From: a virus
UHGV virus genome: UHGV-0084588
DNA: 64,000 bases
Strand: one strand, 5' to 3'
Of this stretch, positions 15,287 to 46,663 are shown one piece after another. Within the stretch, counting starts at the first letter, position 1. The number at the start of each line of letters is the position of its first letter. The notes beneath the pieces were generated by a model, which saw only the letters and a program-made list of their open reading frames with translations, ran no database searches and was not told the origin of the DNA. Position numbers and translations under genes: made by a program.

Positions 15287-15586
15287 ATGCGTTATCAAAC
15301 GGAGATTGTGGAACGCTTAAGTGAAGGATTGGCAAGTGTTAATTTAGAAACAGCGGCCGAATTTCGTGAAGCCTTCACTCTTCCGTTTCCCGATCTGGAA
15401 TCCTTTTGTTTAAAGGTCGCTGAGTATTACTCGAATCTATTAGTACGTTACGGGTATGCGCCAGTACGTTCCGAACTTCCTGAAAACACGGAAGCTATCA
15501 GCTACTGGATTGACCTGCTTGAAGCAGAAACGTTATCCAATCTACGTAAGGCGGTAGACAATGAAACTCGAACCAGCGCGGCGTAA
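15287..15586 (+). CDS. hypothetical acidic protein
   Basis: 99-aa ORF; RBS TAAGGAG immediately after a hairpin. Confidence 0.4.
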   Translation: MRYQTEIVERLSEGLASVNLETAAEFREAFTLPFPDLESFCLKVAEYYSNLLVRYGYAPVRSELPENTEAISYWIDLLEAETLSNLRKAVDNETRTSAA

Positions 15587-16229
15587 GAAGGCGGAAGCCT
15601 ACGCCTTACAAATCTTAAAGTTGGTAGACCCTTCTGGCATTAATGCCGAAGCCGCGAAGAAAGCCTTCGCACGAATGACCGACGAACAGTTTAACCGACT
15701 TCGTAACGGTTTACCTATTTACAACCCGGTGGGAAGTAAAGTCGAAATTGACCACCTGCGCAATATCGAGGTGTGCAAAATCCTAGGGGTAAACCTGGAG
15801 CAACGGTTGTGGCTAACAGAACCAAAAACAGGTGTTTATCACCGTACTCGTTACCCTCACTTGGTCTTACGCTTGCCTGTCCGTCGTCAGACGCAGATGC
15901 AAGAAAAGAAAATGGCGGTTGCGAAGAACGACAAAGTTCGCGATAAACTCTCCGGTCAAGTTGTCGGTCCTTCCAAAGCATCCGGGGTCTCCTTCCCAGA
16001 AGCATACATCATGTATTCCGATGGTCACGACTGGACACTGAAAGAGTTCTTGTGGGCGCGTGGTGGTAACGACGCACTACAACGTGCTTTCTATCAGTCG
16101 CTGCGCCAAACCGGTAAAGGACGTATCGATTTGCCTGGAGCGGAGCGAACGAGTTCTAAAGCAACACGGACGTGGTCAGCGTACCTCAAAGCGATGCATA
16201 TCGGTAACAACATAGGCCATCCGTCATGA
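15561..16229 (+). CDS. hypothetical protein
   Basis: 222-aa ORF overlapping the upstream gene by 26 nt in another frame. Confidence 0.45.
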   Translation: MKLEPARRKKAEAYALQILKLVDPSGINAEAAKKAFARMTDEQFNRLRNGLPIYNPVGSKVEIDHLRNIEVCKILGVNLEQRLWLTEPKTGVYHRTRYPHLVLRLPVRRQTQMQEKKMAVAKNDKVRDKLSGQVVGPSKASGVSFPEAYIMYSDGHDWTLKEFLWARGGNDALQRAFYQSLRQTGKGRIDLPGAERTSSKATRTWSAYLKAMHIGNNIGHPS

Positions 16230-29297: not shown

Positions 29298-29307
29298 GTT
29301 TTACCTC

Positions 29308-29337
29308 TAAAAAAAACGGGGGTAGTTTCCTACCCCC
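29308..29337 (-). terminator. intrinsic terminator between two co-oriented minus-strand genes
   Basis: On the minus strand, GGGGGTAG-gaaa-CTACCCCC followed by TTTTTTTT. Confidence 0.55.
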
Positions 29338-29345
29338 TGTTGTTA

Positions 29346-32300
29346 TTACGCCGATTTACGACTAACGTCGAGTTGTGGCGCTGGTTGGGTTATTGACACG
29401 TTACGTGACGCCGAACCCGGAGCGGTTGACGCAGGGTTAGCCGGTCCGTTTTGCATAGCCTGTGGTCGCTGACGAAGAATTGTTACAATCTCTTTCAGGT
29501 AGCCCGCAGACTCTTTTGCAACCGCCAGCTGCTGTACGCTGATCGGATCACCGCTGTTCACTGTAGAGCCGGTCTGTGCATCGGACGTTACTGTTGGTGC
29601 AGGGCGGACTGATTTCTCCATCTGCTGTCTAGCACCTTCTTTTACTTTAGCAACATCCTCTTCGGCCAGGCCGTCAGCACGAGCGTTTTGACCCACCGTA
29701 TCTACAACAACTGACGCATCACTCGGTGTAACGTCGCCGCCAGGGCTCGGCACAGCCGGACCACCGCCCGTCGCAGCTTTAATGTCATCGGCCCCCATTG
29801 CACCTTTATCTGCTAAGGCTGCATCACGATTCGCCTCGTTCGCAGCTGGCAGGTTATCTGCCGGGCCTGTGATAGACGGATCGTTAGCAGCGCCCGCAGC
29901 GATGGCTGGGGATGACGGCATTGGCGTTACGCCTGTCGTCAAGTCTTTCACCGATGCCTGATTAGCCGCAATTGCGTTTGTTCCTACTGCACCAATCTTA
30001 CCACCCATGATGTTGAGCACTTCATCCAAACTACGCAATTTTCCATTCTTGTAGAAAATTGTGCTGTTTGCCGCGATTTGATCGGCCGATGCACCACGCG
30101 ATGACGGACCGTTCGGATCACGCTTCCATTCTTGCAGGAATTTCTTACCGCCACCTTGTCCTAAGAAGTGGTAGAGGTAAACTGCTGCACCAGGAGGATC
30201 GATGCCACCTAAATCCTTTCTGGCTTTCTCGATATTGTCACGAATATGGCGGACACCAAGCAGAGTATTCGCCCACGGGTCATACTGGTCGGTTTGCGGG
30301 ATACCGTAACGTCTAGCGTAAGCTTTCATCTGCGCACCCCAGGTATCGTTGATGAACTGGAACAAGCCAGCCGCAGAACTTCCTTTAGCTTTGATGCCGT
30401 ATCTAAGTCCTGATTCTGCTTGTGCCATTCCCAGAGCTAACGCTGGGGGAACACCCATCATCTTCGCTACATCTGTAATCAGTGCCGCAACCGCATTCAG
30501 GTTAGGCTTCAATCCGTCGCCCAACGTTGAAATTGGATACTTAGCCGCTAACGTTTTATAATCACCGTCTTGCATCTCGCCAAGCTTCACACCGAAGTTA
30601 CCGGTACTAAACGCGGCGTAATTCTTAGCTCCCATCTGACCATAAGCACCAGCCAAATCGTTTGGCGTGCCGTAATTCCCACCGTCATTCGCTGCCGGTT
30701 GAAGCAGATCGCGATAAGAGGAGGAAGTATTCATCTGTTGCCGAGGTGGTTGGTCCTTCTCGTCATCGGTCAAGAACATCTGAGTCGCACGATCTTTTCG
30801 CTGCCAGTTCACACGGAAACCAGCAGAAGGCGTAGCACGCAGCGTTTTACGTACTGCCAAATCAGCTTCCTTAGACAGTTCTTTCAGATTCTCTAACTCC
30901 GTCGCAACTGAACCAGCGTCAGTGTTAGCATCACCCCCTAACGGGTTAAACGGTACCTCCCACACCGATTGGCGAATACCCCCTTTCAGGTTGTATGCAC
31001 CACGCATCATCAGTGCGATTTCATACAAGAACCCGCCTGTAACGCGTAGGTCCATCGGATCGGCAGCAGGGACATAACGTTTCACTCCAACCACGTACGT
31101 CATGAAGACAGGTAAGAAGCGGTTATAGAACCAGTTCTTGTACCGATCTTCTTTTGGCCCACCAATAGCGTCAGGTGCAATCACCGCAATCGCACGTTTC
31201 CAGTCTCCTTTATACGTACAACTTTTCACATCAGTGTCTTGCAACACTTGACGTTCTAGGAGCGTATAGAGGTTACGGGTTGTTTGAGTAATGCTCACAG
31301 CACCATAAGCTTTCAACCTTACAGATTCCAAATCACGGAGATCGGTTTCTTTAGGTAAGCTTCTCCAGTCAACTTGAACCTGAACTTGTTCGGTGCCGTC
31401 TTCCCAACCTTCAACCTTTGCAACCTCTTTGTTGCGTTCCGCATCCGCTTGAGCCAACGCTTGGGACGATTCCGCCACAGAAGCAACTTTGTGTCCTTCG
31501 GCCACGCCGCCTGTAGCATTAACATCCTTACGTTTTTCATCACGACGCATGTTAATCGAACGAAGCACGCGTTCTTGTGCTTCAACGACTTCTTCACCTG
31601 ACAAAAACTCGGCCGGGGTAAACGTTACGAAATCCCACGCTTTAGAGAACCAACCTTGGTTAACCTTGCGGGGGTCTTCTAATGCACGGAATGCAGGTGC
31701 GTCTTTCGACATCTTCATTTTGTTAAAGATGTTCAACATGTCTGCTTTCGACACTTTCGCTGGATTACCGACGTCAGCTAACGCGATATCGTTATCCATC
31801 GATTTCAGTGCCGTAATCCAACGTAAGTAAATAGGCACAAAACGTTGTAGCATAAACGCACTAAACGCCAGCATTTCGCCTTTGTCTTCTACGTTAGTAC
31901 CAAACCCTTCGGCCAGTTTCTTCACGTCGTCACCGGACAAACCACGCAGCTGCGCTTGACCGTTCTCTGTATAAGAGATATACGGTTTCAAGTTGTCTTC
32001 TAAATAACGTGCTTTTGCACCGTCGTCGGAAGACCATTCATCGTGGTCTCTAAAACCGTACTGCGCCAATCGCATGTTATCCAGATACTGGGCATTTACA
32101 CGGGTTGCAGTTTTATACGCAAACCAAGACAGCGCAGCGCCTGCAGCGACCAAGCCAATAATCGGCCAGCCAACCGCAGTTACCACTGCAGATGCCGCTG
32201 TCGCGACAGCACTCACCGCAGGGACAGCCAAACGGGTCACAGCAAACTTACCAACGTTCCACAACGCTTTGCCTGCAAATCCAACCGGCTTGAAGATTCC

Positions 32301-35300
32301 CCATTTTGCAACTTTACCTAAGATTGAACCCACTGTGCCCAAAATACTCACAATCGGTCCTACCAACGGCAGTCCTTTAAGGAAATCCATTACCCCACGT
32401 TTACCACCTTTCTTCTCAGCCTCTTTCTTAGCCTTTTCCTCTTCCTTAGAACGACGACGGCGTCGGAAGAACTGGAAGTAATCGCGTTTTTCATCACTGG
32501 CAGGCGGCTTATTGCGTTGGCCGAACTTACTGAACATAGTTCTTAACAAACCATCCGAAGCACCTGCTTTTTCCGCAGAATCACGCATGGTGTTAAACCA
32601 TGACATTTCCTGAAGATTAACCATTCGGTTCAGGCGTTCCAGTAAAGCTGACCCAACGCTACGGGCTTTCTGTTTCCCTTTATTAATCACACGACCAGCG
32701 CTATCCATTACGGTGTCTAAGTCTTCTTTTGCCGCATCGACGATACGTGTTTTAGACACCTTGCCTCTTGCGTAGATGTGTTGACGGTAAAACTCAGCAA
32801 CATCGTCATCGCGTCCTGCTAAACGACTCTCCATTCGATAACGTGTGCCAATATCGAAACGTGGATCACGGAAAGTATCGACCATATCGCTTGCACGACC
32901 ACGGAAACGATCAAACCAACCACGTGCGGCACCGCCCCAACGAGAAAGACGATCGCCTACCGCACCGCGATAACGGGACATTCTGTCACGCATCCGACCA
33001 CGCCAATCCCGGAACCCCTGAAAATGTTCACGGAACCCTTCACGTATGTCTTTAGCACGTTGGAATAATCCTTTAACTGAGCTGGCTCCCGTATTCCGTT
33101 CCATCTGTTCTGTCCAGGTATCATCTTCTGGTTCACCTGGCAATCTCCGGTTAAGGAGTTTGTAGATACGGATTAAGATGTGGTTAGTTTTACGGCCGTT
33201 CGACCATGAGAACACACTAAACCCACCACCAGAACCCCCTTCCTTACGGTTCTGCCACCAACGTGTCAGAGGGTTATCAGAAGCCAACTCTTTGAGCTTC
33301 TCAAACCCGCGTTTTGCATTGTTCCACAAACGTGCTGGCATTCCCGTTACACGGGAAATCATGCTTTGTAAACGGGTTTTCTCTGCGCCCTCTGGAACCT
33401 CATTTAACCACTCACGTGCTTTCTCGAACAACGAAGCCGCTTTAGGTGAAATGAAGCCTAAAAGTTTCTTCGGTAAAGTCACAGCTTTGTTTACCGCCGT
33501 TCCTGCTTTCCCAGAAATGTACTGGAAAAGCGCTTGAACTTTACCGCCTTTGTAGAATCGCAGTTTACCTGCGGCAGCCAAATCAGCAGCAGATAAGATT
33601 AAATTACCCGCTTCATCGACAATATCACGTCCCAGTTTAATATCGTCGAGGGTTTTAAGTTGAATCAGCTTCTCAGTTTTCGGGTCAGCCTGGTAATATT
33701 CCCCAGCTTCTAAACGACTTCCTTGTAATACGACGTTGCCACGTTCATCGTAAATATCACGAACACCTAAAACGCCTTTACCGAAAGCTACAGCAGAATT
33801 CCAACCTGTCGATAGAGTACCTGTTACTAACCCTTTCAGTCGGCTAAATACACCGGGTCCTTCGGAGGAGCCGCCTGAGAATTTCCCACGGATAAAACCA
33901 CCTAAAGCCTGCAGACGATCTTTCCCACGTAGGAACAGATTCTTACCAAAACGCCCTACACCTGAACCGGTATCCCAAAGCACCCCAGCCCAACGGCGTA
34001 ACAAGCCTGTCTCGCCTAGCACAATACGTTTGCGTTTACGACGACGTTTACGACCCGAGTCACTCGAACTTTCAGTTTCGTCACCGTCATCACGACTACC
34101 GCCTAAACTGGCTAGGAGAATACCTTCCTCATCCATGTTCTTAACGTGTTTGAGGATATCTTGCACTGTGCTAGATTCGGGCTGTTTACGTACAGCATCA
34201 ATCAAACGGTCGAATTGCTGTTCCAACCCGGCGTTCGTATCTGGACGACTGCTTAATAGTTCAACAAAGTTAGTGGATTTCTCTCCATAAAGTACCGCAG
34301 CGAGTTGACGTGCGCTTAAACCGCGACCACGACCACCTTTTCCACCGCCACGCACATTGGACAGTTCTTTGTCTTCAAAGCTCGGCTCTGCACCTGCACC
34401 CATCCGACGCAAGTAATCACCCAGCGCAGAACCGTTTTGCAATTTACGCTGAATCTCTTGCTCACGGGTTAACGAACGTCCAGAGCGGGTCTTACCCATC
34501 GACAGGTCATTAAATAACGTATAGGGATCGTTAATGTCCTTATCGACCTCGAAAATGTCTTTCTTCGCATCGTATTTAAAAATACCGGAATCACGAAGTG
34601 CATTCTCGCCGTAAATCACAGACGCAGCATCAACAGTGTCCTGACGTGCGCGAATCGTTGACTGGATAGCGGCGATTTTGTTTGAAATCGCGTTGCTCAA
34701 TTCATGGTGTCCACCAACCAGTTCCGCAGAACGGGCTTCTAAAACACCCTGAATCGCTTCCACAGCGTTTGCGTTCATGTACCGATACATGTGCATCGGG
34801 TCTTTCAATAAAGACCCTACATCGAACGCTTTCCCTTCCGAGGCACGGGATTCGATGTAGTCTGCTAACGCCTGACGTGTTTTCCGATCGAGCGTTTTAT
34901 CTTTATCGATAAAGTCGACTGTATCGTTGATGTAAGTCTGTAAACGTTTACGCTGATCGTCATTAGCAACCGCTTTACGAACACGATTACCAATAACTTT
35001 ACGATCCACCATACCGCGTGTGGTCAGGTCATAAACCTGATCGTGGTGTTCACCATATCCACGACGAATAGATTTGTTAATCTCGGACAGTAACGTCGGA
35101 ATAACTTCAGTGATGCTGAGGTAAGCTTTACGATCGAATTTCGCCGCCGCAGAAAGAGATTCCGCAGAGCGATCGTCTAATGCTAACGTTTCGCGACGTA
35201 GCGGGTTAACCAATCCCAATTCGTGCATTAGTCGAAACAGATCAGCTAACGGGCCGCTTGTTTCTCCTGCTATTGCTGAGTTAGAAATAGACGATAAATT

Positions 35301-36470
35301 TCCAAAACCATACTTCGCCAACTGAAGGCGTTTCATGACTTCTGGATTTTTCTCCAACTCGCCACGAGTCCAGTTTTGTAGACGTTCGATCTGGGGTTGT
35401 AAGAGCCGTTTTGCTAACCAACCACCTGCAAAACCTGCCGCTTTATTACGCGAGTTTGTATTACGACGGTCAGGAGACAACGATGAGCTGTCCGACATGT
35501 CAAAGTCGTCTTCCTGGGCCATCCCTAGAACTTGTTCTAGAATCCCACGACCATCGCTAAAGACGTTCGAGATTTTCTTCTTCGCGTTCTCACGAATCTG
35601 GCTAATGAAATTGTCTGCGTAATGTAAGGGGTTCATCCACTCCGCAGCTTTACGTTTTACATTAGCCCAACGAATTTCAGAAAACTCTTCCTTCGCGTAG
35701 TCTGGCAGTGCTGTGTTCTTAACGATGGCTTCTAATGCCGGTGTATTGCGTGCAAACTCGTCTTGTTTGAGTTTCGCAATATCCTGCAAAGCAAACAATG
35801 TCCGGTATTGCAGCTCTAACTGCTTACGCTGAACATTCAACAACACGCCCCGACTTAAGCTAGTCGTTAAGTTGACGTCTTTTGCAATACCGATTACTGT
35901 CTGGAACAGTGCGTCGGACTTCATGTCCTTAATCGTGTCACGCAAGCGGTCTTCAACCATCCCTTCTTGCGTTTCACGTTGCTGGTCCGCCGTTTGCGGT
36001 GCACCTGAGAACACGCTGTCCAGCTCACGATCCATCAACGCTTGTTTAGGATCGTAATTCCCATAGTCGATTTGATCGTTACGTGCCCACTTGTCGATTT
36101 TCCGTGTTACGGATTCCGGTAAATACCGTTTCAGTGTTGGGCCTAACTGTCTCGCTTGCATCTTAACGACGCGAGACGTCTTTTCAATCTCGTCTTTCGT
36201 ATGGGCCAGAATGTCTTGACCTGCAGCTTTAACGTTTTGATAGCCTTCGTAGGCTTCTGCCGCAGGTTTAGGCATCCCTTTTAAAATAACCTGATCACGT
36301 TTGTTTTCGGGCCAGATAGTCGACAACGCCGACTTACGGGCAGCACGAAATGTGTCCATGACCGGGTTACGCGATTGGTCTTGTTGACGAGGGGGCTCAT
36401 CAAAATCGTCCCAGTCGTCCATGTTATCAAGATCGATTTCATCGAAATCATCTTTACCTTTTTTAGCCAT
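29346..36470 (-). CDS. giant virion protein (2374 aa) with C-terminal lytic transglycosylase domain
   Basis: Acidic N-terminus (DDFDEIDLDNMDDWDDFDE); long hydrophobic Ala/Val/Gly-rich membrane-like region; C-terminal region with AQAESGL, AAGLFQF and YLYHFLGQGG resembling the SLT signature; overall like phiKZ gp181-type proteins. Confidence 0.8.
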   Translation of the reverse strand: MAKKGKDDFDEIDLDNMDDWDDFDEPPRQQDQSRNPVMDTFRAARKSALSTIWPENKRDQVILKGMPKPAAEAYEGYQNVKAAGQDILAHTKDEIEKTSRVVKMQARQLGPTLKRYLPESVTRKIDKWARNDQIDYGNYDPKQALMDRELDSVFSGAPQTADQQRETQEGMVEDRLRDTIKDMKSDALFQTVIGIAKDVNLTTSLSRGVLLNVQRKQLELQYRTLFALQDIAKLKQDEFARNTPALEAIVKNTALPDYAKEEFSEIRWANVKRKAAEWMNPLHYADNFISQIRENAKKKISNVFSDGRGILEQVLGMAQEDDFDMSDSSSLSPDRRNTNSRNKAAGFAGGWLAKRLLQPQIERLQNWTRGELEKNPEVMKRLQLAKYGFGNLSSISNSAIAGETSGPLADLFRLMHELGLVNPLRRETLALDDRSAESLSAAAKFDRKAYLSITEVIPTLLSEINKSIRRGYGEHHDQVYDLTTRGMVDRKVIGNRVRKAVANDDQRKRLQTYINDTVDFIDKDKTLDRKTRQALADYIESRASEGKAFDVGSLLKDPMHMYRYMNANAVEAIQGVLEARSAELVGGHHELSNAISNKIAAIQSTIRARQDTVDAASVIYGENALRDSGIFKYDAKKDIFEVDKDINDPYTLFNDLSMGKTRSGRSLTREQEIQRKLQNGSALGDYLRRMGAGAEPSFEDKELSNVRGGGKGGRGRGLSARQLAAVLYGEKSTNFVELLSSRPDTNAGLEQQFDRLIDAVRKQPESSTVQDILKHVKNMDEEGILLASLGGSRDDGDETESSSDSGRKRRRKRKRIVLGETGLLRRWAGVLWDTGSGVGRFGKNLFLRGKDRLQALGGFIRGKFSGGSSEGPGVFSRLKGLVTGTLSTGWNSAVAFGKGVLGVRDIYDERGNVVLQGSRLEAGEYYQADPKTEKLIQLKTLDDIKLGRDIVDEAGNLILSAADLAAAGKLRFYKGGKVQALFQYISGKAGTAVNKAVTLPKKLLGFISPKAASLFEKAREWLNEVPEGAEKTRLQSMISRVTGMPARLWNNAKRGFEKLKELASDNPLTRWWQNRKEGGSGGGFSVFSWSNGRKTNHILIRIYKLLNRRLPGEPEDDTWTEQMERNTGASSVKGLFQRAKDIREGFREHFQGFRDWRGRMRDRMSRYRGAVGDRLSRWGGAARGWFDRFRGRASDMVDTFRDPRFDIGTRYRMESRLAGRDDDVAEFYRQHIYARGKVSKTRIVDAAKEDLDTVMDSAGRVINKGKQKARSVGSALLERLNRMVNLQEMSWFNTMRDSAEKAGASDGLLRTMFSKFGQRNKPPASDEKRDYFQFFRRRRRSKEEEKAKKEAEKKGGKRGVMDFLKGLPLVGPIVSILGTVGSILGKVAKWGIFKPVGFAGKALWNVGKFAVTRLAVPAVSAVATAASAVVTAVGWPIIGLVAAGAALSWFAYKTATRVNAQYLDNMRLAQYGFRDHDEWSSDDGAKARYLEDNLKPYISYTENGQAQLRGLSGDDVKKLAEGFGTNVEDKGEMLAFSAFMLQRFVPIYLRWITALKSMDNDIALADVGNPAKVSKADMLNIFNKMKMSKDAPAFRALEDPRKVNQGWFSKAWDFVTFTPAEFLSGEEVVEAQERVLRSINMRRDEKRKDVNATGGVAEGHKVASVAESSQALAQADAERNKEVAKVEGWEDGTEQVQVQVDWRSLPKETDLRDLESVRLKAYGAVSITQTTRNLYTLLERQVLQDTDVKSCTYKGDWKRAIAVIAPDAIGGPKEDRYKNWFYNRFLPVFMTYVVGVKRYVPAADPMDLRVTGGFLYEIALMMRGAYNLKGGIRQSVWEVPFNPLGGDANTDAGSVATELENLKELSKEADLAVRKTLRATPSAGFRVNWQRKDRATQMFLTDDEKDQPPRQQMNTSSSYRDLLQPAANDGGNYGTPNDLAGAYGQMGAKNYAAFSTGNFGVKLGEMQDGDYKTLAAKYPISTLGDGLKPNLNAVAALITDVAKMMGVPPALALGMAQAESGLRYGIKAKGSSAAGLFQFINDTWGAQMKAYARRYGIPQTDQYDPWANTLLGVRHIRDNIEKARKDLGGIDPPGAAVYLYHFLGQGGGKKFLQEWKRDPNGPSSRGASADQIAANSTIFYKNGKLRSLDEVLNIMGGKIGAVGTNAIAANQASVKDLTTGVTPMPSSPAIAAGAANDPSITGPADNLPAANEANRDAALADKGAMGADDIKAATGGGPAVPSPGGDVTPSDASVVVDTVGQNARADGLAEEDVAKVKEGARQQMEKSVRPAPTVTSDAQTGSTVNSGDPISVQQLAVAKESAGYLKEIVTILRQRPQAMQNGPANPASTAPGSASRNVSITQPAPQLDVSRKSA

Positions 36471-36499
36471 AACGTTTAATCCGTATCAGGAGATTTAGC

Positions 36500-38119
36500 G
36501 TGAATAAACTTAATTGGGTTGACTTTTATCTGCTCAATGTAAACAAGTCTCTTGTGTCGCGATTACGACCCGTCACGACCACGGATACTTTCCAGGGGTT
36601 AACAAAAAACTTTCACCCCGAAGGTCTTTACTCTACAGAGATTTTTGGACTCACGGGTAGTGAAGCGCGAGACTCTACATTCTCTTATATCGATATTAAA
36701 CTCGATATCATTTCGCCGACAGTGTGTTTGGCGTTATTCCAACTCAAACAACTCTACGAAGAAATTTGTTCTGGAAAACGCTACGCAACGTGGAGCGAAA
36801 AAGAAAAAGATTTCGAACCGGCCTTGCCGGGAGACCCAGGCGCAGATACCGGTTTTAACTTCTTCCTCAGTCACTATAACGATTTAAAACCTAAGCGTAA
36901 CGAGTCCCTACAACGTGACGAAACCGTGGATTTCTTTTTGAAATTCCGCCCCGTCAGTCTTAGTCGATACGTTCTCGTGTTACCCGCGGGTTTACGCGAT
37001 TTAGTAATTCGGCAAGATGGCAGAGAGCAAGAAGAAGAAATCGGTGGGATGTATCGTCGGTTGGTATCTCTCGCCAGGGCAATCCCTGACCGAGCAACCC
37101 GTGTCGAATTAACTAACCCCGTACGCTGGAAACTTCAACAAACCTTCAATGATATCTGGATGTATTTCTTTAACATCCAAGACGGTAAAGGGGGTTTCCA
37201 ACGTCGTAAAGTGACGTCTCGTAAATTAATGAACGGGACACGTAACGTATTGTCCTCGTTCTCGACGGGGTCTAAATGCATGGGTCGTGAAGACGCTATT
37301 CGTCCTACCGACACCAAAATTGGTTTATACCAGGGTTTAAAAGCATTACTCCCTGTTGCGCAGTACCAAATACGTGAACGTTACCTCGGTAACATCCGTG
37401 CTGGTGATGGCAACCTTTACGGCGTAAACACCAAAACCCTTAAACGTGAATTCTTGGAAGTAGGTGGTCGTGTATACGACACCTTTACCACCGACGATGG
37501 GATTGAATCCTTAATCAACCGAATGGAAGCTCGCGAGCTTCGCCATCAGCCGATTATGTTGGATGACACCCACTACATTGCGTTGGTTTACCAAGACACC
37601 AAACATTTTAAGGTGTTCTACGATATTGAAGAACTTCCTAAAACGTTTGACCGAAAATTCGTTCACGGTATGACACTCGTCGAATTGCTTTATTTGTCGG
37701 GCTACGAACTTTGGAACGATTATTTCGGTTTCGTTACACGTTATCCCGTTACAGGCCGAGGCTCGACGTATTCATCGACCATAAGATTGGAGACCACCAC
37801 GTCATCTTTATATTTAAAAGAACTGGAAGATGACTGGGAAACTGAAAAACCCCGAGGGGCTATCAGTTACCCTGACCGGTCGGTTCCTACCTTCGTTGAG
37901 TCTATGGCACCACACCCTTCACGCCTAGGTGGCTTAGGGGGTGACTATGACGGTGATACCGGCTCGTTTAACGCGCCTATGTCCCAGGAAGCGCTCGAGG
38001 AAAACCGGAACTGGATACACTCGAAAAACTACTGGTTCGATTCTGATGGGAACTTTAAAATCAATCCTATCAACAACGTGATTAAACGTGCAACGCAAGC
38101 GTTATTAAAGAACCCATAA
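36500..38119 (+). CDS. multisubunit-type RNA polymerase beta-prime-like subunit, N-terminal half
   Basis: GTG start after [18 protein letters not shown]...MYRRLV parallels bacterial beta-prime VLPVLPPDLRPLV...[29 protein letters not shown] parallels [43 protein letters not shown] parallels the catalytic [20 protein letters not shown]. Confidence 0.75.
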   Translation: [539 protein letters not shown]

Positions 38120-38128
38120 GGCTAAGCA

Positions 38129-41100
38129 ATGCTGCTCATTAAACAGTTTAACCAACGCTTCTCGGTGCGTAAAACCGACGAGTTTGGTAATCCGAGGATT
38201 ATCCCGCTCGAGAAGCTACAGATACCGCGTGGTTCTGTACTCCACGTCATTGATCTCGACCAGGTGGTATTAGCACCGCCTGCAACGCTTGAAATTATTC
38301 AACCGTTAGAAAAACCTGCTCAGGTTCGCCACCACTTTAAATTACCGGAAGACGGTATTAGTGGGCATCCTCGTAACAAGCCTGTACAGGGACAAGAACG
38401 TGCTATCTTTGCCTACCACCGTGCAAACCGTCCGATGCGTCGTCTTACCTCAGACGAACTGGTTCGCAAAGACTTAAAAGTTCTCCTGATCGAGAACTAC
38501 ACGCCGATGTTATCGCACTACTACTATCCTGACACCCAGTTAGCCTGGTACGATAGATTGCGTAACATCCAACTATTGATGATTAACCAGTTCAAATACG
38601 ACACGCAAGAATACATGCGTCAGAACTATTTCGTTATTGAACTGGGTTCGGCATTGCCTTCGTTCCAGAAGTTTCAAACAACCTATAACGACCGTGTTAA
38701 GAGCAAGATTGAGAAGTTCCAGGACTTCAACTTGCTGTGGTTATTAGAATTGTTTGCTTGGGCTTATGGAAAACAATCTGATTCCTTATTCGCGGGAATG
38801 GATTTAACTCAGCTGTCACGAATGAACTTTATCTTCACCCACAACACGGGCTTTACGTCCATGAACATGGGTGTTGTAGAGAAAATGCGTAAGTCTTCCG
38901 GCGGCCGTTTAAGTGACGACCAAATGGCGCGGATGTTCTACCGTACGCTGGTGCGTGTAATGACACAAGCACCGTCTAACGCGTACGAAGCGGAGTTCCT
39001 AACGCCTGAAGGTGACGAACGTGTTTTCCTTAAAGACGTCGAAGAAGAAACCGTTGATGTTGTCGACGACGATGACGTTGTTAATGACGCTGTGGTGGAA
39101 TCCGATAACACCTTCGATGAAAAAGAAGACGTTGTTATTGAAGAACCGAAGGAAGACGTCAAACCGACGACAATTGTTGTCGAGAAAGTCATTCCGCATG
39201 ACGAAATTATTAAACAGGAAGCACAACGCTTAGCTGAAGCGGGCCGCTTAAGTTCTAAAGCATATCAGTTCCTGTCTGAATCGTCTAAACGTTTCGTTCA
39301 GCTGCCTAACCCGTATAACCCGAAAGAAACCTACGGGGAAGCGCTTACTGTTCACGAAAAGGATATCGTCGTTAAAGCTGAACCGAAAAAAGTTCAGCGG
39401 CTTGTTACCGACGAAGGGTGGGCAGAGAACGTCACCGACCAGATGGTGAAACAGTACAACCAGACCATGATGACCAAGGACGTACTGGCGGCGGTCGCCA
39501 GTTCACAACGTTTGGGTCTGGCAGTTCACAACCACACGGTGGAAAAAGAAGTTTCTGTTACAGGGACTATCGAACACCACACTTTACGTGTTCAGCCGGT
39601 CGGCGGTGAACCAACAACCGTTCGCTTCTCCATCCCAGGCTTGACCGAGGACGGTACTTGGGTAGCTAACGGTGTCGAATACACCATGCGTCGACAACGT
39701 GTGGACTTACCGATTCGTAAAGTTGCGCCGGATACAGTCGCGCTGACTACCGCTTACGGTAAAAACTTTGTCCGTCGTAGTGATAAGGTCGCGAACGATT
39801 ACGGTCGTTGGTTAACCAACGCGATTATCACACGTGCTGTTGATCCGACAAACACCGAAGTCACCGATGCACGTTTAGCAAATGTGTTCGATCCTACGCA
39901 ACATCTGCCGCGTCAGTATACGGAGATTGCACGCCGTATTGCCAGCTTTAATGCAAACGGCTATATGTGGAACTTCGACTACAAAGAAGCCGTTAACTTC
40001 TTTAACGACGAGCAGCTCAGAGACGCCGATGCTGCCAAACTTCTGCCGGTGGCGAAACGTCCGCGTAGTGAAACAATCCTGGCAATGGATGACAAATCCA
40101 TGCTTTACGGTGTGAACGGAAACAAAGTTGAGCCAGTGGGAACTATCGCAGAGGTACTGGGCTTTAATAGCCAGAAAGTGCCTCGCGAAATGACCGAGCT
40201 GTCTTTGATGGGTAAATCTTTGTCGCTTGGTTTTATCTTCTCGTTCTATCTTGGACTCCAGGGAATGTTGAAACATTTCGGTATCCAATACGAGTTGGTT
40301 CCTGCAGGTCAACGTGTTGATAAGAATGCCTACGACAGTATTATTCGACTACAAGACTGTAAACTTTTAGTTACTTGCGATAACGATCAACAGAAGATGA
40401 TTCTGCATGGTTTGGATCGCTATCTCAAACACCTGGTTGCTTATACCGAATCAGAAGCAGACCGTGAAGACATTTACCTGAACTTATTACGTGATGCAGA
40501 TGGCCTAACACCACGGTACATCAACGAGCTGAAACAGATGCGGTCCGCGTTTGTTGACGACATGCACGCACGTATCCTCAGGAAAATGGGTGAACCAGAA
40601 ACCTTTATTGGTTTGCTGGAACGTTCTAACGAACTGTTACAAACTGACCACTCTTTACCAGAGATTAACGGCGACGAAATGATGTTCTTAGGAAATCAGA
40701 GGATTGCCTACCACATCTATACCGCGATGGTCAGAGCGATGCGTAACTACAATAACGCACCGGGTAGTAACCGTAAGTTCGAACTGACGCAAGACATGGT
40801 TTGGGGTGCAATTAACTCCGACCCGTCGGTACTTTTGGCACCAGGCGCTAACCCTATTCAGTCGATTAAAGAAAAAGACGTTATTACGATGGGGGGTACA
40901 GGCGGTCGTAATCGTAAAACGATGGTCTACCACACGCGTGAATTCCAACCCAGTGATATCGGGATAGTCTCGGGTAACACCGTAGATAACGGGGACGTAG
41001 GTATTACTGCTTTCGTCACCAATAACCCACGTTTTGACACCGTTGACGGTACTACGTTTAAACGTGAAGAGAAAACCCCGAAACCAAGCGACACCCTTTC

Positions 41101-42295
41101 GTTTATTGACGGGTTAGTACCAGATACGTTAATGGACGACGCAAAGCGTCAAAACTTCGTTGGGATTCAGTTAGGTTCTGCCACCAGTTGTATTGGGGCA
41201 ACCACAACCCCGTATCGTACTGAACAGGAGAAATTCGTCGCACACCGTACTTCGGTGAAACATGCACGCGTTATTGATAAAGCAGGTAAGATTACTGGTC
41301 TGTCGAAAGACCACATTGAAATTACGTACGAAGATGGAAGTAAAGAAGCCTTTCCTCTAGGGCGCTGGTTCGGCCCCCACGAAGGTACCTTCTATCCGCA
41401 CACCTTGGTAACACGCTGGAAAGCCGGTGATAAGCTCCCGGCCGGAGCAGTGATTACGTACAACGAGCAACACTTTGAACCTGATATTTACGATCCTACT
41501 CAGGTTTCCTGGAAAAACGGGGTACTGGCTACCGTTGCTTTATTAGAAGCTGAAGAAGTTATCGAAGACTCCAATGCAATTTCTGAACGGTTCGCGAAGA
41601 AAATGGTGGGGCAGGTAACAAAGCTGAAAGAAGTGACGATTAACAGCAACCAGATGCTTCTGGAAATCGTGAATGAAGGAGACCACGTAGACGTCGATAC
41701 AATCCTATGCACGTTTACTGACGACTTGACAGGCGATATGAGTGCCTTTAGTCAGGAAGCAGCCGCAACGTTGCAAAGTTTAAGTTCGTACGCACCTCGT
41801 GCAGGGGTACGTGGTATCGTGGATAAGATCGAAGTGGTGTATCACGGTGAAACCGAAGACATGACACCAAGCCTTGCTGAACTGGTGCGTAAATACGACA
41901 GAATTCGTCGTAAAGCCGCTTTGGCAGTTGGGCGAGGTGATCCGGTTTCAGGCAGTGTAAACGGCGACTACCGTGTCGAAGGTGTACCATTAGCCTTTAA
42001 CTCACTTTGTGTTCGATTCTTTATTACACACGACGTTGAGATGGCCGCTGCGGATAAGATGGTTATTGCTAACCAGCTAAAAACCACCGTACAAGAAGTC
42101 ATGTACGGCGACAACAAAACAGAGGATGGTGATGACCTGGACGTGTTGTTCGGTCGTGATTCTGTCGATGCGCGTATCGTAGGTTCAATCCAACGTATCG
42201 GTACCGCGAATGCTGTAGGTGAACAAGCCGGGATTCTCATCGGGCGTATACTCGATGGGGAAGCTGTGCCTGATTTACCCGCGACACTTAAATAA
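38129..42295 (+). CDS. multisubunit-type RNA polymerase beta-like subunit
   Basis: C-terminal third shows beta-like blocks in order: HTREFQPSDIGIV...FVTNNPRFDT, WKAGDKLPAGAVI, EDSNAISERF (compare EDSILVSERV), PRAGVRGIVDKIEVVYHG (compare PNGVSGTVIDVQVFTRDG), AADKM (compare PGDKMAGRHGNKG); N-terminal two-thirds not assignable. Confidence 0.55.
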   Translation: MLLIKQFNQRFSVRKTDEFGNPRIIPLEKLQIPRGSVLHVIDLDQVVLAPPATLEIIQPLEKPAQVRHHFKLPEDGISGHPRNKPVQGQERAIFAYHRANRPMRRLTSDELVRKDLKVLLIENYTPMLSHYYYPDTQLAWYDRLRNIQLLMINQFKYDTQEYMRQNYFVIELGSALPSFQKFQTTYNDRVKSKIEKFQDFNLLWLLELFAWAYGKQSDSLFAGMDLTQLSRMNFIFTHNTGFTSMNMGVVEKMRKSSGGRLSDDQMARMFYRTLVRVMTQAPSNAYEAEFLTPEGDERVFLKDVEEETVDVVDDDDVVNDAVVESDNTFDEKEDVVIEEPKEDVKPTTIVVEKVIPHDEIIKQEAQRLAEAGRLSSKAYQFLSESSKRFVQLPNPYNPKETYGEALTVHEKDIVVKAEPKKVQRLVTDEGWAENVTDQMVKQYNQTMMTKDVLAAVASSQRLGLAVHNHTVEKEVSVTGTIEHHTLRVQPVGGEPTTVRFSIPGLTEDGTWVANGVEYTMRRQRVDLPIRKVAPDTVALTTAYGKNFVRRSDKVANDYGRWLTNAIITRAVDPTNTEVTDARLANVFDPTQHLPRQYTEIARRIASFNANGYMWNFDYKEAVNFFNDEQLRDADAAKLLPVAKRPRSETILAMDDKSMLYGVNGNKVEPVGTIAEVLGFNSQKVPREMTELSLMGKSLSLGFIFSFYLGLQGMLKHFGIQYELVPAGQRVDKNAYDSIIRLQDCKLLVTCDNDQQKMILHGLDRYLKHLVAYTESEADREDIYLNLLRDADGLTPRYINELKQMRSAFVDDMHARILRKMGEPETFIGLLERSNELLQTDHSLPEINGDEMMFLGNQRIAYHIYTAMVRAMRNYNNAPGSNRKFELTQDMVWGAINSDPSVLLAPGANPIQSIKEKDVITMGGTGGRNRKTMVYHTREFQPSDIGIVSGNTVDNGDVGITAFVTNNPRFDTVDGTTFKREEKTPKPSDTLSFIDGLVPDTLMDDAKRQNFVGIQLGSATSCIGATTTPYRTEQEKFVAHRTSVKHARVIDKAGKITGLSKDHIEITYEDGSKEAFPLGRWFGPHEGTFYPHTLVTRWKAGDKLPAGAVITYNEQHFEPDIYDPTQVSWKNGVLATVALLEAEEVIEDSNAISERFAKKMVGQVTKLKEVTINSNQMLLEIVNEGDHVDVDTILCTFTDDLTGDMSAFSQEAAATLQSLSSYAPRAGVRGIVDKIEVVYHGETEDMTPSLAELVRKYDRIRRKAALAVGRGDPVSGSVNGDYRVEGVPLAFNSLCVRFFITHDVEMAAADKMVIANQLKTTVQEVMYGDNKTEDGDDLDVLFGRDSVDARIVGSIQRIGTANAVGEQAGILIGRILDGEAVPDLPATLK

Positions 42296-42342
42296 TCTCG
42301 AGGGGTGGGTCGCTCCCACCCTGATAAACTCCGGAGAAGAGA

Positions 42343-42636
42343 ATGTCTATTCTAGATAAAATCAAACAGCGGCACGGTATTCCGACTGGGAAAAATATTA
42401 CCCAGCAAAACGTGGAGGGATACAGTCCCATTCAACGTACCAACTACGTGTCTTTAGGTAATACCGTTGAATTAGCAACGGAGATTGTACATGGACTGAT
42501 TCGCGGTAACTCAGGAATGTCTGACCGTATCGGTGATCAGAAACTGCTGAAACGTGATATCGCAGATCTGGTGGGCGCGCGTTTGTACGCGATGCTTCAG
42601 GCGAACATCAGCACGAATAAAGAGGTTAAACAATGA
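42343..42636 (+). CDS. hypothetical protein
   Basis: 97-aa ORF; RBS GGAGAAGAGAATG right after a hairpin. Confidence 0.45.
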   Translation: MSILDKIKQRHGIPTGKNITQQNVEGYSPIQRTNYVSLGNTVELATEIVHGLIRGNSGMSDRIGDQKLLKRDIADLVGARLYAMLQANISTNKEVKQ

Positions 42637-44093
42637 TCAGTTTATACTCGCTGAATGCGGTTACTAACGCCATGAAACTGTGCAAACAGCATAATGTTCA
42701 GCTTGGCACAGACGTTGACTCTCCGGTTGATTTACTCAACCGTGCGGTCGACCCTACGCGCGTTTTCGATACCACAATCACCGACGAACAGTTCTTCCAG
42801 GAACTGCCTGCGATTACGCAGCTTAAACGTCCTGTAGACGGTACGGCAGAAGCTTCGATTATTCGTGACGGCGCTGTTGAAGTTGAAGCACTGCGTGTTG
42901 ACGATCACGAAACCACGCTATTCGAACTGAAGAACATGGCCATTCAGCGTTGTAACGGGATGCTAGACTTTGCCCGTAACGTTGTTCAACCGTTTGTACA
43001 GTTGGTTATCCAGAATAACACGATTGAAGATGTCAAACCGTTGGTCGAAGACTGGAACCTGATTCCAGTAGGTATCGATCCGTGTGTAGATTCCCCGGTT
43101 GTCCAGGCGCTGATTCAAGAAATCGCCAACCCGATGGGTAACGGTACAACTTACGACCCGATCAAGTTCGATGTACCGGCCAACATCGAGATTCCGGAAA
43201 CAGGTGTAAAAGCGTACGATGAACTGGTACGTAAATTACTGAACGATCTGAATCTCAGCATGTACGACGCAGCAAAACTGCTGCTGGCAGGTAACTACAC
43301 CGTACCTGTTGCAGATAAAGCACCAGAGATGGTAAAAGAACGTGTTCTGGTACTGCTGTTGTCTTCGTTCTTCATTGAACGTCCGTGGCCTGACTCAGGT
43401 GTTGACGCTCTGAAATGGAAGGCGGAAATGGGTCGTGCCTATTACACGTCTATCGGCTGGGTATACGGTTTCGAAAAAGCGGTGGCTAACCGTGTCGCCA
43501 CAGGTAACATCGTTTACTCCTACGATACCAGCGAGAAAAACGTTTATATCTGTCAGGAAACGATGGACGACTACCTGGAAAAAGGCGGTATCGTTGAAGC
43601 CCTGTTGGGTGCCATTTACCTGATGGATGAAGGCGACTATAACGTTTCTGCACGTGTTGCGTCTCTGCTGGAGAACCAGAAAGCCTACGTTGAGGCTTAC
43701 AACCGTCGTGCAATTATCGTTCAAAAACGAAACGAACTCGATTGGGTAAGTCGTAACCGCCAGGCACTGAAAAATGCGTTCTCGATTGCAATCGACCAGC
43801 TCGACCAGGGCTACCTGACTGTTGGCGAACTGACGCGTACTCGCGAAGAAGTCAAGCAGGTTGTTATGGGCTTTTGTGATGATTTCTTTGTCAACGCAGA
43901 CGAAGACATTACGTTGTTTATCATCCGGACTGCATGTAACTCCGTATTCTGCGCCTACGAAATTGATCCGCTAATGCGTGCGATTCACACGGCGATGATT
44001 GAGAACACCGACCCGGCAGAAGCCGCAACCAGTTGGATGATTGACTATGTACTGAACTGGATTGCAGGTTCAGTATTCGTCGATAAACTTTAA
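42633..44093 (+). CDS. hypothetical protein
   Basis: 486-aa ORF with ATGA overlap to the upstream gene. Confidence 0.55.
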   Translation: MISLYSLNAVTNAMKLCKQHNVQLGTDVDSPVDLLNRAVDPTRVFDTTITDEQFFQELPAITQLKRPVDGTAEASIIRDGAVEVEALRVDDHETTLFELKNMAIQRCNGMLDFARNVVQPFVQLVIQNNTIEDVKPLVEDWNLIPVGIDPCVDSPVVQALIQEIANPMGNGTTYDPIKFDVPANIEIPETGVKAYDELVRKLLNDLNLSMYDAAKLLLAGNYTVPVADKAPEMVKERVLVLLLSSFFIERPWPDSGVDALKWKAEMGRAYYTSIGWVYGFEKAVANRVATGNIVYSYDTSEKNVYICQETMDDYLEKGGIVEALLGAIYLMDEGDYNVSARVASLLENQKAYVEAYNRRAIIVQKRNELDWVSRNRQALKNAFSIAIDQLDQGYLTVGELTRTREEVKQVVMGFCDDFFVNADEDITLFIIRTACNSVFCAYEIDPLMRAIHTAMIENTDPAEAATSWMIDYVLNWIAGSVFVDKL

Positions 44094-44105
44094 CGCGCTT
44101 AGGAG

Positions 44106-44840
44106 GTGATCGTGAGTGCGATTGAAACAGCCCGTCGTGACCCTACTAAGGTTCATGCGGACTTGGTAAATAACGGCACGGTCACCACTACCAAAGGGGG
44201 ATGTTTCATTTACATCCCCGTTGGGTTTGTGGCGAAGGAGTTGGCGGTTATTTCTTCTACGGTAACAATTGTAGGGATCTTTGCGATTTCTACCGACCGT
44301 AAAACATATGGGGTGTCCAGCGTTACAACGCTTATGGAAATTACCCCAACGGCGTTTGAAGAGATCGACGTCTTTGGCGTTCCTTATTACGAATTTCGTT
44401 TTGATCCCGGTACAGTGGTTTTCCCCAACCGCAATTTACAGGTGTTGTCTCACCCTATTTACAACATTGCGTCGTATATTTACGACTTTGGTAATCGTCC
44501 TTTCTGGTTTACTGCAGCGGATGATGCTGAACTCTTGGCACCTGATAAAGTCAAGAAATGGAACGGTTTTACTGTATTTGCCGATCAGATTACCGCTGAC
44601 GTTTACGCAGCACACACGCAGCGTAAAGTAGGTGATCCGAGAACGTTCTTCCGTTACACGCTGAAGAAAGATAGCGATCTTAACAACCCTGTGCAGTTTA
44701 TTCCGTTGCGCAGTGGTTCACTTAACAAAACGTCGAGACTGGCGAAACTTGCGGACGTAGAACTTAAACGTGGTATTCGTTCCGCGTTACAGGTTGACCC
44801 GGTGCGTGCCGAACCGCTCGAAGATTTGTTTATGAGGTAA
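44106..44840 (+). CDS. hypothetical protein
   Basis: ORF after RBS TAGGAGG; start may be the second GTG at 44112. Confidence 0.5.
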   Translation: MIVSAIETARRDPTKVHADLVNNGTVTTTKGGCFIYIPVGFVAKELAVISSTVTIVGIFAISTDRKTYGVSSVTTLMEITPTAFEEIDVFGVPYYEFRFDPGTVVFPNRNLQVLSHPIYNIASYIYDFGNRPFWFTAADDAELLAPDKVKKWNGFTVFADQITADVYAAHTQRKVGDPRTFFRYTLKKDSDLNNPVQFIPLRSGSLNKTSRLAKLADVELKRGIRSALQVDPVRAEPLEDLFMR

Positions 44841-44871
44841 TCCTACCTTTTACTTTTACTCGGGGAAAACA

Positions 44872-45675
44872 ATGGACAATTTAACACTGCGTTACAACTG
44901 TGTAGCGTTAGCCGGTGTTAACGCTCCAGCCACACTGGAGAAAGACGCGGATGGTTATTACCGCGTACTGTTGGGTGCTTTGAATATCTTTAACTCGGAA
45001 GGGATTTTTTACGCCTATAACGAGTCTAAACACGTATTCGAACGCTCGAATATTTTTATGCGTAAAGTGAAAGCAGGGAATCTGTTCGGGGAAGAAGATC
45101 ACCCGGCACCAGAGCCTGGCATGACCGAAGCGCAGTGGATCGATCGCAACGAGTGGATTGAGACGAAAAATGTCTGTATGCACATTCGTGAAGTTGAGGT
45201 GATTCCAACCGACCAAACCTGTAACGGGTTGCCGGTTATGGAAATCTGGGGCTGGGTTAAGCCGAACCGTGAACGTGGTCCGTACTTAGCAGAAGCGCTC
45301 GAAAACCCACACCAGAACGTATGTTTCTCTCTGCGCGCAATCGTACGTGAAGGCTATGTAGGTGGTGTGAAAACACGTCGCTTAGATCGCCTGGTGACGT
45401 TCGACTGGGTTATCGAAGACGGATTGCAGATTTGTAATAAATACTCTGCAATTCAACGCGGTAGCAAAGTGGCGCAAGAATCCACTCGTGTACTGCTGGA
45501 CCGTCGTGTTTCTCTCCAGGCGCTGGAGGACATTCTGCGAAATCCTAACACTACGTCTGCTATCGCGACAGAATCTCGTCGTGGTGAAGTTCGTGCGTTA
45601 GCGCAGGAGTACCTGGCCATCGCTAATAAGAAAACTAACCTACGTGTTATGGGTTTAGGTAACGGGAAGTGGTAA
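44872..45675 (+). CDS. hypothetical protein, possibly a prohead protease
   Basis: 267-aa ORF; weak resemblance only (EEDHP and later FSLRAIV...DRLVTFDWVIEDG) to the His/Ser pattern of caudoviral prohead proteases. Confidence 0.45.
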   Translation: MDNLTLRYNCVALAGVNAPATLEKDADGYYRVLLGALNIFNSEGIFYAYNESKHVFERSNIFMRKVKAGNLFGEEDHPAPEPGMTEAQWIDRNEWIETKNVCMHIREVEVIPTDQTCNGLPVMEIWGWVKPNRERGPYLAEALENPHQNVCFSLRAIVREGYVGGVKTRRLDRLVTFDWVIEDGLQICNKYSAIQRGSKVAQESTRVLLDRRVSLQALEDILRNPNTTSAIATESRRGEVRALAQEYLAIANKKTNLRVMGLGNGKW

Positions 45676-46314
45676 ATGGCTGATACTATTGAACCTTCGT
45701 TGGTGAAGTGGTTAGAGCAACAACTGCCACGCACCGCAAAGAAAGTTTCTTTGAAAAAGTTAGATAGTGCCCCGTTACATATCAGCGATCGAAAGATTCC
45801 GGTTTTCACACCTCGGATTCCTTATAGCGTTTACAGTGACGAAGACAAAACGGTGCCCCGTATTTGCTGTTCTGTCGATTTAGAACGTTGTCTGCGTGGT
45901 GTTCGTCGTTACTTTACACCTGCGGAAACCGCAAACGTTGTGCCGCGTTTTTATCTGTATGGGTTCGACGAACGTGATGTCGTGCAGCCCTCGATAGAAC
46001 TGTCGGCTGAACCCTACCGCGCTAATGAAGTGTGGATTGTTCCTCACCGCTTATCAAACTGGGAAATTAAACCTAGTATGGTTGGTGAGCTGCGTTTAGT
46101 TCGATTAGCAAATAACGGATACACTCACACGTTAGCAGTAGCGCTTAACCAAGACGTTCGTTTGAATACTAACCAGCTATTAAAAAGTGGTTCATTCTAC
46201 GAACTTACTGTAACGTGTAGTGAACGGGAACCTCAGATTACGATTTCTGATGCAAAAGAAATCTCTCGGGGTATTTTTGACGCTGCGTTAAACGAATACA
46301 CTGTAACTCCATAA
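45676..46314 (+). CDS. hypothetical protein
   Basis: 212-aa ORF starting right at the upstream stop. Confidence 0.5.
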   Translation: MADTIEPSLVKWLEQQLPRTAKKVSLKKLDSAPLHISDRKIPVFTPRIPYSVYSDEDKTVPRICCSVDLERCLRGVRRYFTPAETANVVPRFYLYGFDERDVVQPSIELSAEPYRANEVWIVPHRLSNWEIKPSMVGELRLVRLANNGYTHTLAVALNQDVRLNTNQLLKSGSFYELTVTCSEREPQITISDAKEISRGIFDAALNEYTVTP

Positions 46315-46363
46315 TCGCCCAGTTCATGGTCTGCAACCCGAATTTGTCGATTGTGAGGGAAGC

Positions 46364-46663
46364 ATGAAAGTGGTTAACATTGCCATACCTCCGACTTTGC
46401 AAACTTTAACGCCTGAGGAATTGAAAGCACTAACAATCTATGCCGTTCAAGAACGCGCTGGAAAGGAAGTGCTTTCTTCGATACTCGCTGAACGTTTTGA
46501 CACCAAACGTAAAGTCAACAACATTGTCGCAGGTATTTCACAACAAGATATCGCGAAATTTTATTGCGATGTACGTCAAGCCGGTACCGAAATCGATTTT
46601 ACACGTACTTACCTCTTGTTAACTGAACCGTTTCGGTTCATTCTTTCGATTAAGCAGTCCTAA
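46364..46663 (+). CDS. hypothetical protein
   Basis: 99-aa ORF. Confidence 0.4.
   Translation: MKVVNIAIPPTLQTLTPEELKALTIYAVQERAGKEVLSSILAERFDTKRKVNNIVAGISQQDIAKFYCDVRQAGTEIDFTRTYLLLTEPFRFILSIKQS

Follow-up and report, generated by a model that had tools for sequence, protein, structure and literature searches.

Two adjacent genes in a 64,000-nucleotide stretch of virus genome UHGV-0084588 very probably encode the beta'N and betaN subunits of a jumbo phage virion RNA polymerase

The question examined here was raised by two adjacent plus-strand open reading frames (ORFs) in a stretch of 64,000 nucleotides (nt) of the UHGV virus genome UHGV-0084588. This whole stretch is referred to as the window, and all coordinates refer to it. 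Do these ORFs encode pieces of a multisubunit RNA polymerase (RNAP) and, if they do, to which kind of phage polymerase do they belong? Split virion-packaged RNAPs let phiKZ-like jumbo phages begin transcription without the host enzyme and are a defining, well-studied hallmark of these phages. An original prediction, made from the sequence alone, had taken a 539-amino-acid (aa) product for the N-terminal half of beta' and its 1388-aa neighbor for a beta-like protein, and had attributed both to a phiKZ-like split RNAP. Both ORFs are present as described, and every peptide block quoted for them was found in the two proteins. The first (36500-38119, plus strand) begins with a GTG start codon with AGGAG located 7 nt upstream, while the second (38129-42295, plus strand) begins with ATG 9 nt past the stop codon of the first. 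Our analysis indicates that the two genes very probably encode the beta'N and betaN subunits of a virion-packaged multisubunit RNA polymerase (vRNAP) from an SPN3US-like jumbo phage (phiKZ-related, Chimalliviridae-type).

The 539-aa protein, beta'N, matched the PHROG family phrog_2986 ('RNA polymerase beta subunit') end to end with an E-value of 7e-234 and aligned over its full length with its orthologues SPN3US gp240 (86% identity) and phiKZ gp180 (32% identity). When a beta'N family profile of 33 sequences was compared with the PDB, the best match was the beta' chain of the non-virion RNA polymerase (nvRNAP) of Bacillus phage AR9 (7s01_d, 2e-13). Plastid beta' (8e-10) and bacterial beta' chains (1e-7 to 1e-6) were matched as well, for a range of 1e-9 to 1e-6, and the alignments cover the VLPxxLR, GKxGxxR...GxR and NADFDGD blocks. 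Of the peptides quoted in the original prediction, a 12-letter block lies at aa 158-169, MYRRLV at aa 184-189 and a 23-letter block at aa 229-251. The DYDGD motif (37943-37957, plus strand, aa 482-486), an analogue of NADFDGD that holds the Mg-binding Asp triad D482/D484/D486, pairs with the plastid beta' NADFDGD and with the DYDGD of AR9 beta'. The motif had been assigned to 37940-37957; the block itself is there, with the longer span reading GDYDGD in frame. D482, D484, G485 and D486 are invariant among the 33 beta'N homologues. The protein ends 53 residues beyond D486, which bears out the expected stop at about 50 residues after DYDGD, and the 426-residue AR9 chain 7s01_d breaks at a similar point, about 55 residues after the same motif. 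The AlphaFold2 model of beta'N has a mean predicted local distance difference test score (pLDDT) of 81, and a Foldseek search with this model returned only RNAP beta' chains (557 matches at E <= 1e-3, with AR9 nvRNAP beta' at 4.5e-14). The AR9 subunit (PDB 7S00/7S01) is the best solved-structure match to beta'N, although it belongs to a non-virion enzyme and shares only about 13% identity. Orthology to gp240 together with the profile and fold matches therefore upholds the assignment of this product as an N-terminal half of beta' with the catalytic Asp triad.

The 1388-aa protein, betaN, similarly matched phrog_3148 ('RNA polymerase beta subunit') end to end (E 0). It is the orthologue of SPN3US gp241 (76% identity) and of phiKZ gp178 (30% identity over aa 2-1368). 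A betaN family profile of 20 sequences matched Thermus beta in the PDB at 1.5e-13 in addition to many other bacterial beta chains, and a third round of homologue searching, with the betaN alignment as profile, brought back the same 36 proteins and nothing new. Collinear blocks link betaN aa 505-532 with Thermus beta 117-144 (NGxERV), aa 981-1110 with 530-655 (DDANR) and aa 1295-1385 with 822-915 (GDK..HGNKG). The first beta-homologous block, SIPGLTEDGTWVANGVEYTMRRQRVDLPIRKV (39629-39724, plus strand, aa 501-532), reads SIPGLTEDGTWVANG...RRQR and corresponds to Thermus beta 117-144 and Francisella beta 130-155. Its position, together with the alignment of phiKZ gp178 from residue 2 onward, contradicts the earlier view that the N-terminal 900 or so residues match nothing. 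Further along, DDAKRQN (41135-41155, plus strand, aa 1003-1009) is the counterpart of the bacterial beta DDANR and aligns to HDDANR of Thermus and Francisella beta; D1003, R1007 and Q1014 are invariant in the betaN family. The PRAGVRGIVDKIEVVYHG block was located at aa 1223-1240 and AADKM at aa 1307-1311. The latter opens AADKMVIANQLKT (42047-42085, plus strand, aa 1307-1319), the counterpart of the bacterial GDKxxxRHGNKG, which aligns to GDKLANRHGNKG within Thermus beta 822-915 and in which K1310 and K1318 are invariant in the family.

One beta block of betaN was less straightforward to place. EDSNAISERF (41564-41593, plus strand, aa 1146-1155) is present, but it had been quoted at 41566-41595, a span that is 2 nt off and out of frame. 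It is the probable counterpart of the bacterial NFEDSxxxSER: E1146 and D1147 are invariant and S1148 nearly invariant in the family, and an ungapped BLOSUM62 comparison of betaN EDSNAISERFAK with Francisella EDSILLSERIVK scores 32 versus 5 for the register chosen by HMMER. EDSNAISERF is therefore likely equivalent to the bacterial NFEDS block, with an ambiguous alignment register. The end of betaN corresponds to about residue 915 of the 1119 residues of Thermus beta and is roughly 200 residues short of a full beta. This endpoint, along with orthology to gp241, agrees with the proposal of a beta-like protein that lacks the beta C-terminal region.

The resemblance of the two proteins to RNAP subunits lies far outside what chance would produce. 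Both proteins share collinear active-center blocks with the beta and beta' subunits of bacteria, plastids and cyanobacteria (Thermus 1IW7 chain C; plastid RpoC1 8QMA). The phage enzyme differs from the cellular ones in distributing beta over two polypeptides and beta' over three, and betaN carries about 470 extra N-terminal residues. Plastids and cyanobacteria themselves have a natural beta' split (RpoC1/gamma).

To place the two genes among known phages, SPN3US proteins were searched against the window by tblastn. Matches were full-length and in the same order: gp218, betaC (15561-16223, 83% identity); gp239, the giant tail/SLT protein (29349-36470, minus strand, 60%); gp240, beta'N (36500-38110, 86%); gp241, betaN (38129-42289, 76%); gp242 and gp243, with no assigned role (42343-42615, 65%, and 42633-44081, 56%); gp244, the beta'C candidate (44112-44837, 86%); and gp245, the prohead protease (44872-45672, 81%). 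The window is, as judged from these matches, part of an SPN3US-like jumbo phage genome, and it shares with SPN3US the gene order, lengths and sequence of four vRNAP subunits along with the flanking gp239, gp242, gp243 and gp245. An identical search with the SPN3US nvRNAP proteins gp34 and gp35 gave no match in the window. The arrangement in phiKZ is comparable: gp181 endolysin (minus strand), gp180, gp179, gp178, gp177.1, gp177, gp176 and the gp175 protease, with 30-37% identity. The phiKZ subunits gp180 (beta'N), gp178 (betaN) and gp176 (beta'C candidate) show the same synteny and 30-32% identity over their full length, including the betaN N-terminal domain. The phiKZ version differs in that an additional ORF, gp179, separates the beta'N and betaN genes and in that the acidic linker of betaN is longer. 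The full-length alignments to SPN3US and phiKZ subunits, at 76-86% and 30-32% identity respectively, sustain the phiKZ-like attribution.

The SPN3US counterparts have been characterized as virion proteins. All five subunits (gp240, gp241, gp42, gp218 and gp244) were detected in SPN3US heads, and an amber mutation in gp241, gp218 or gp244 leaves the particles without any of the five (PMC5105663, PMC5694885). This joint loss was taken to mean that assembly of the enzyme precedes its incorporation into the prohead. The phiKZ-type vRNAP is injected and transcribes the early genes (PMC13282480). Orthology to the SPN3US virion proteins consequently identifies the enzyme encoded in the window as a virion polymerase and answers the question, left to proteomics in the original prediction, of whether it is the packaged or the non-virion one.

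The original prediction had not identified the remaining beta and beta' fragments in the window, yet two of them lie inside it. The betaC subunit (222 aa, 15561-16229, plus strand) is the orthologue of SPN3US gp218, with 83% identity to it and a match to phrog_3233 ('RNA polymerase beta subunit') at 6e-93; gp218 was assigned as betaC from virion mass spectrometry and an amber mutant (PMC5105663, PMC5694885). The part of beta that is missing from the C-terminal end of betaN is accounted for by this separate putative 222-aa betaC. Comparison of betaC by hhalign with the E. coli beta C-terminus gave a weak, collinear alignment (E 0.015, probability 3%) that we take as no more than a lead. The beta'C candidate (244 aa, 44106-44840, plus strand) is the orthologue of SPN3US gp244 (86% identity) and phiKZ gp176 (31% identity) and matches phrog_2926 ('virion structural protein') at 2.6e-90. 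The fifth subunit, the gp42-type beta'M, gave no tblastn match in the window. It was found in the sister genome IMGVR_UViG_3300029126_000001 (225 kb), which has 95-98% DNA identity to the window, about 65 kb downstream of beta'N and past the position of the window's right end. Four of the five vRNAP subunit genes are accordingly present in the window, so that the search suggested for the missing fragments succeeded within the window for betaC and the beta'C candidate and only in the sister genome for beta'M. The finding allows confident annotation of these four subunits and adds no new principle. In addition, betaC is 222 aa long both here and in SPN3US, while the phiEaH2 RefSeq record NC_019929.1 annotates a 318-nt (105-aa) 'RNA polymerase beta subunit' at 114816-115133. 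The IMG/VR copy of the phiEaH2 genome aligns over betaC residues 1-221, and the phiEaH2 RefSeq annotation appears to be truncated.

Separate genes carry between them the sequence features of a complete beta/beta' catalytic core, and the catalytic residues are conserved. The five polypeptides (beta'N, betaN, betaC, the beta'C candidate and beta'M) would together rebuild a core of the bacterial type, in which beta'N contributes the DxDGD Mg-binding loop and betaN the greater part of the active-site wall of beta, with the DDAxR, EDS and DK...K blocks among its elements. By analogy with SPN3US and phiKZ, the complex would be assembled late in infection, enter the prohead as a unit, be ejected with the DNA and then transcribe the early phage genes without the host polymerase. 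Several observations weigh against this interpretation. A Pfam-A scan of beta'N and betaN found no family at E <= 1, because the two proteins are too divergent for the Pfam models; the suggested check against the Pfam Rpb1 and Rpb2 families came out empty for both, and used alone it would have looked negative. Single-sequence PDB searches returned a marginal beta' match for beta'N (E 0.4) and only chance laccase matches for betaN, so that the positive results of the suggested profile and structure checks come from family profiles, which match PDB beta' and beta, and from the fold of the beta'N model. Foldseek template modelling (TM) scores for beta'N reach only about 0.3, so that the domain arrangement is not reproduced for the isolated subunit, a result to be expected when a multidomain subunit is modelled without its partners. 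In the long HMMER alignment to Francisella beta, E1146-D1147 falls opposite the 'KD' of SERIVKDD, 10 residues off the bacterial ED, and in this respect the EDSNAISERF block is not placed where the local comparison places it. Against the PDB, betaC gave nothing as a single sequence and no meaningful match as a shallow profile, and the shallow profile of the beta'C candidate gave no meaningful match either. The beta'C role of the gp244-like protein goes back to genetic and proteomic work on SPN3US and to a published but weak HHpred match, and this protein is best called a candidate. Finally, beta'M comes from the sister genome and not from the window, and packaging, ejection and activity for the phage of the window are inferred from the work on SPN3US and phiKZ.

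Two other identities were considered for the pair of genes. They could belong to the second polymerase, the non-virion enzyme, which the phage produces after infection to transcribe its middle and late genes. Both enzyme sets consist of split beta/beta' homologues, and of all solved structures beta'N matches the AR9 non-virion enzyme best, with no vRNAP structure among the PDB search matches or in the literature found. This identity is nevertheless extremely improbable in view of the 76-86% identity to the SPN3US virion subunits gp240 and gp241 and the lack of a tblastn match to gp34 or gp35 in the window. The betaN N-terminal domain profile matches phiKZ gp178 rather than gp34 or gp35, and the genes lie in a conserved block of head genes by the prohead protease, as do those of phiKZ gp178 and gp180, both of which carry the annotation of structural head protein. 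Alternatively, the two proteins could be degenerate RNAP relics that have lost catalysis and act in the head purely as structural or ejection proteins. Their extreme divergence from cellular RNAPs, with no Pfam match, the GGDYDGD in place of the canonical NADFDGD and the abundance of betaN as a head protein in SPN3US (PMC5694885) would all suit such a role. However, homologues down to about 20-40% identity keep all three catalytic Asp residues and the key residues of beta unchanged, early transcription independent of host RNAP has been published for phiKZ-type phages (PMC13282480), and the subunits are essential in SPN3US (PMC5105663, PMC5694885), which leaves a loss of catalysis very improbable. 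The non-virion and inactive-relic explanations were both rejected on these grounds.

The most distinctive part of this putative virion polymerase is the N-terminal extension of betaN, which comprises about 470 residues beyond cellular beta, with beta homology beginning near residue 500. Its subdivision is based on an AlphaFold model (34-sequence alignment, pLDDT 77.9). Residues 1-286 (38129-38986, plus strand) constitute a family-specific domain for which an alpha/beta fold is predicted with confidence. It is followed by an acidic disordered linker (aa 287-353, 38987-39187, plus strand; pLDDT < 50 at 287-327 and 340-353) that includes DVVDDDDVVNDAVVESD at aa 310-326. The acidic stretch noted in the original prediction is real, with 28 D+E versus 6 K+R in aa 281-360, and the linker stays acidic throughout the betaN family despite differences in length and sequence. 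A conserved helical segment (aa 354-470, 39188-39538, plus strand) is predicted to join the linker to the beta core, with helices at aa 357-370, 376-390 and 435-462 and a pLDDT of about 80, and this connector is conserved from the window phage to phiKZ. SPN3US gp241 carries an N-terminal extension of about 400 residues, as window betaN does, although the acidic linker of the window protein is shorter than that of gp241 and the tripeptide at the domain boundary is A-Y-E rather than D-Y-E.

An exhaustive HMMER search with betaN aa 1-295 recovered 428 cluster representatives at E <= 1e-3, and among the best 150 of the 428 the domain is found at the extreme N-terminus in nearly all. The domain profile matches phiKZ gp178 aa 1-320 at 2.9e-90 and gave no match in SPN3US gp34, gp35 or gp42. 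A search of a viral model library with the domain matched only jumbo-phage RNAP beta proteins, while a fold search of solved structures in the PDB gave no match. Judged from these searches, the betaN extension is not an orphan, since the predicted domain at aa 1-286 occurs across the vRNAP betaN family including phiKZ. The domain is the remaining novelty of this locus, as it is family-wide and confidently predicted and has no known fold relative. The betaN cluster as a whole holds 717 member sequences.

A function has been proposed for the extension of gp241, in which an N-terminal domain of about 400 residues was noted and suggested to target the complex into the head (PMC5105663). Following this published hypothesis, the N-terminal module of window betaN most likely targets the assembled enzyme to the capsid or holds it there, and would in that case be a capsid-targeting or retention device. 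The module could instead provide promoter specificity or DNA handling in place of a sigma factor. The AR9 nvRNAP has a separate promoter-specificity subunit, and none is known for the vRNAP. A specificity module would be compatible with conservation of the module across the vRNAP family together with its absence from SPN3US nvRNAP gp34 and gp35 in our searches, with the lack of known alpha, sigma or omega homologues for phiKZ-type enzymes (PMC13282480) and with the retention of the uncleaved domain of SPN3US betaN in mature virions (PMC5694885). Set beside the head-targeting proposal for gp241, we regard a specificity or DNA-handling role as unlikely.

Processing of the extension was also considered. 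It differs between phages: 201phi2-1 loses an N-terminal propeptide by cleavage at TFE-275, and the SPN3US counterpart is unprocessed (PMC5694885). Window betaN has A-Y-E at aa 285-287, directly on the domain boundary, where SPN3US has D-Y-E and phiEaH2 has E-Y-E. Cleavage by the prohead protease at AYE-287 was set aside because neither SPN3US nor phiEaH2 conserves the tripeptide and because four AxE-type motifs are found by chance within the first 480 residues; the A-Y-E at the boundary probably reflects chance.

By length, the relatives of betaN separate sharply into three classes. One is full-length, the second (about 1000-1127 aa) stops at query residues 976-1010, and the third (about 536-632 aa) stops at query residue 526. 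Each of the two break points is a group I intron site. The initial piece of the gene in HPP-Temi and Serratia phage 2050HW terminates in '...DD*', matching D1003-D1004 of the window protein, and is followed by an insert, which in 2050HW carries an endonuclease ORF. The D1003-D1004 site is that of the mobile intron of PhiPA3 gp210, which attacks phiKZ gp178 (bioRxiv 10.1101/2023.09.30.560319). A metagenomic relative (L067) has its betaN gene in three pieces, split at both sites. Its two inserts match the Rfam model Intron_gpI over the full model length with E-values of 3.9e-6 and 1.4e-8, both under the gathering threshold, and the second insert contains an HNH/NUMOD1 ORF. Window betaN is uninterrupted at aa 526-528 (39704-39712) and at D1003-D1004 (41135-41140), so that both target sites are empty. 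Rfam and tRNA scans of the window found nothing, and the empty Rfam scan indicates that the RNAP genes of the window are free of introns.

The genes that surround the two subunits complete the conserved block. The adjoining giant virion protein of the original prediction exists as a 2374-aa minus-strand ORF (29346-36470) with a lytic transglycosylase region. This giant virion/tail protein is the orthologue of SPN3US gp239, occupies the position of the phiKZ gp181 'tail-associated endolysin' and matches phrog_3201 ('tail fiber protein', E 0) and phrog_4067 (transglycosylase, 4e-27). A 29-nt intergenic region separates it from the divergently transcribed beta'N ORF. Between betaN and the beta'C candidate lie the gp242-like ORF (42343-42636) and the gp243-like ORF (42633-44093), which have a 4-nt overlap and whose PHROG matches are to families of unknown function. 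SPN3US gp243 is reported to be essential for the loading of the major ejection proteins into the head. Downstream of the beta'C candidate, the prohead (head maturation) protease (44872-45675, plus strand) is the orthologue of SPN3US gp245 and phiKZ gp175 (37% identity to the latter) and matches phrog_3014 at 1e-104. Away from this block, a 498-aa ORF at 13746-15242, about 320 nt upstream of betaC, matches a UvsX-like recombinase family (phrog_97, 1e-55).

At the nucleotide level, megablast with the two genes recovered the Erwinia phages Stratton, phiEaH2 and Asesino (about 75% identity, full length) and SPN3US-like Salmonella phages (about 74% over half the length), for an overall identity of about 74-76% to SPN3US-like and Erwinia phiEaH2-like phages. 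The closest proteins (94-96% identity) are labelled 'hypothetical proteins' and come from assemblies of Salmonella enterica isolates, on contigs of about 220 kb. The jumbo phage lineage is apparently a frequent find when Salmonella isolates are sequenced, and its recurrence there could reflect a carrier state, pseudolysogeny or contamination.

A scan for sigma70-type promoters and terminators gave nothing informative around the RNAP module. With a simple consensus, 4 sigma70-type promoter-like sites were found at 35500-46500 versus 12.8 +/- 3.7 in shuffles, a weak signal that fits a phage independent of the host polymerase. Across the giant minus-strand gene (28000-36000) the GC content is raised to about 0.49 and the GC skew is strongly negative, down to -0.20, a shift that is consistent with the coding strand of this gene and not with a foreign origin.

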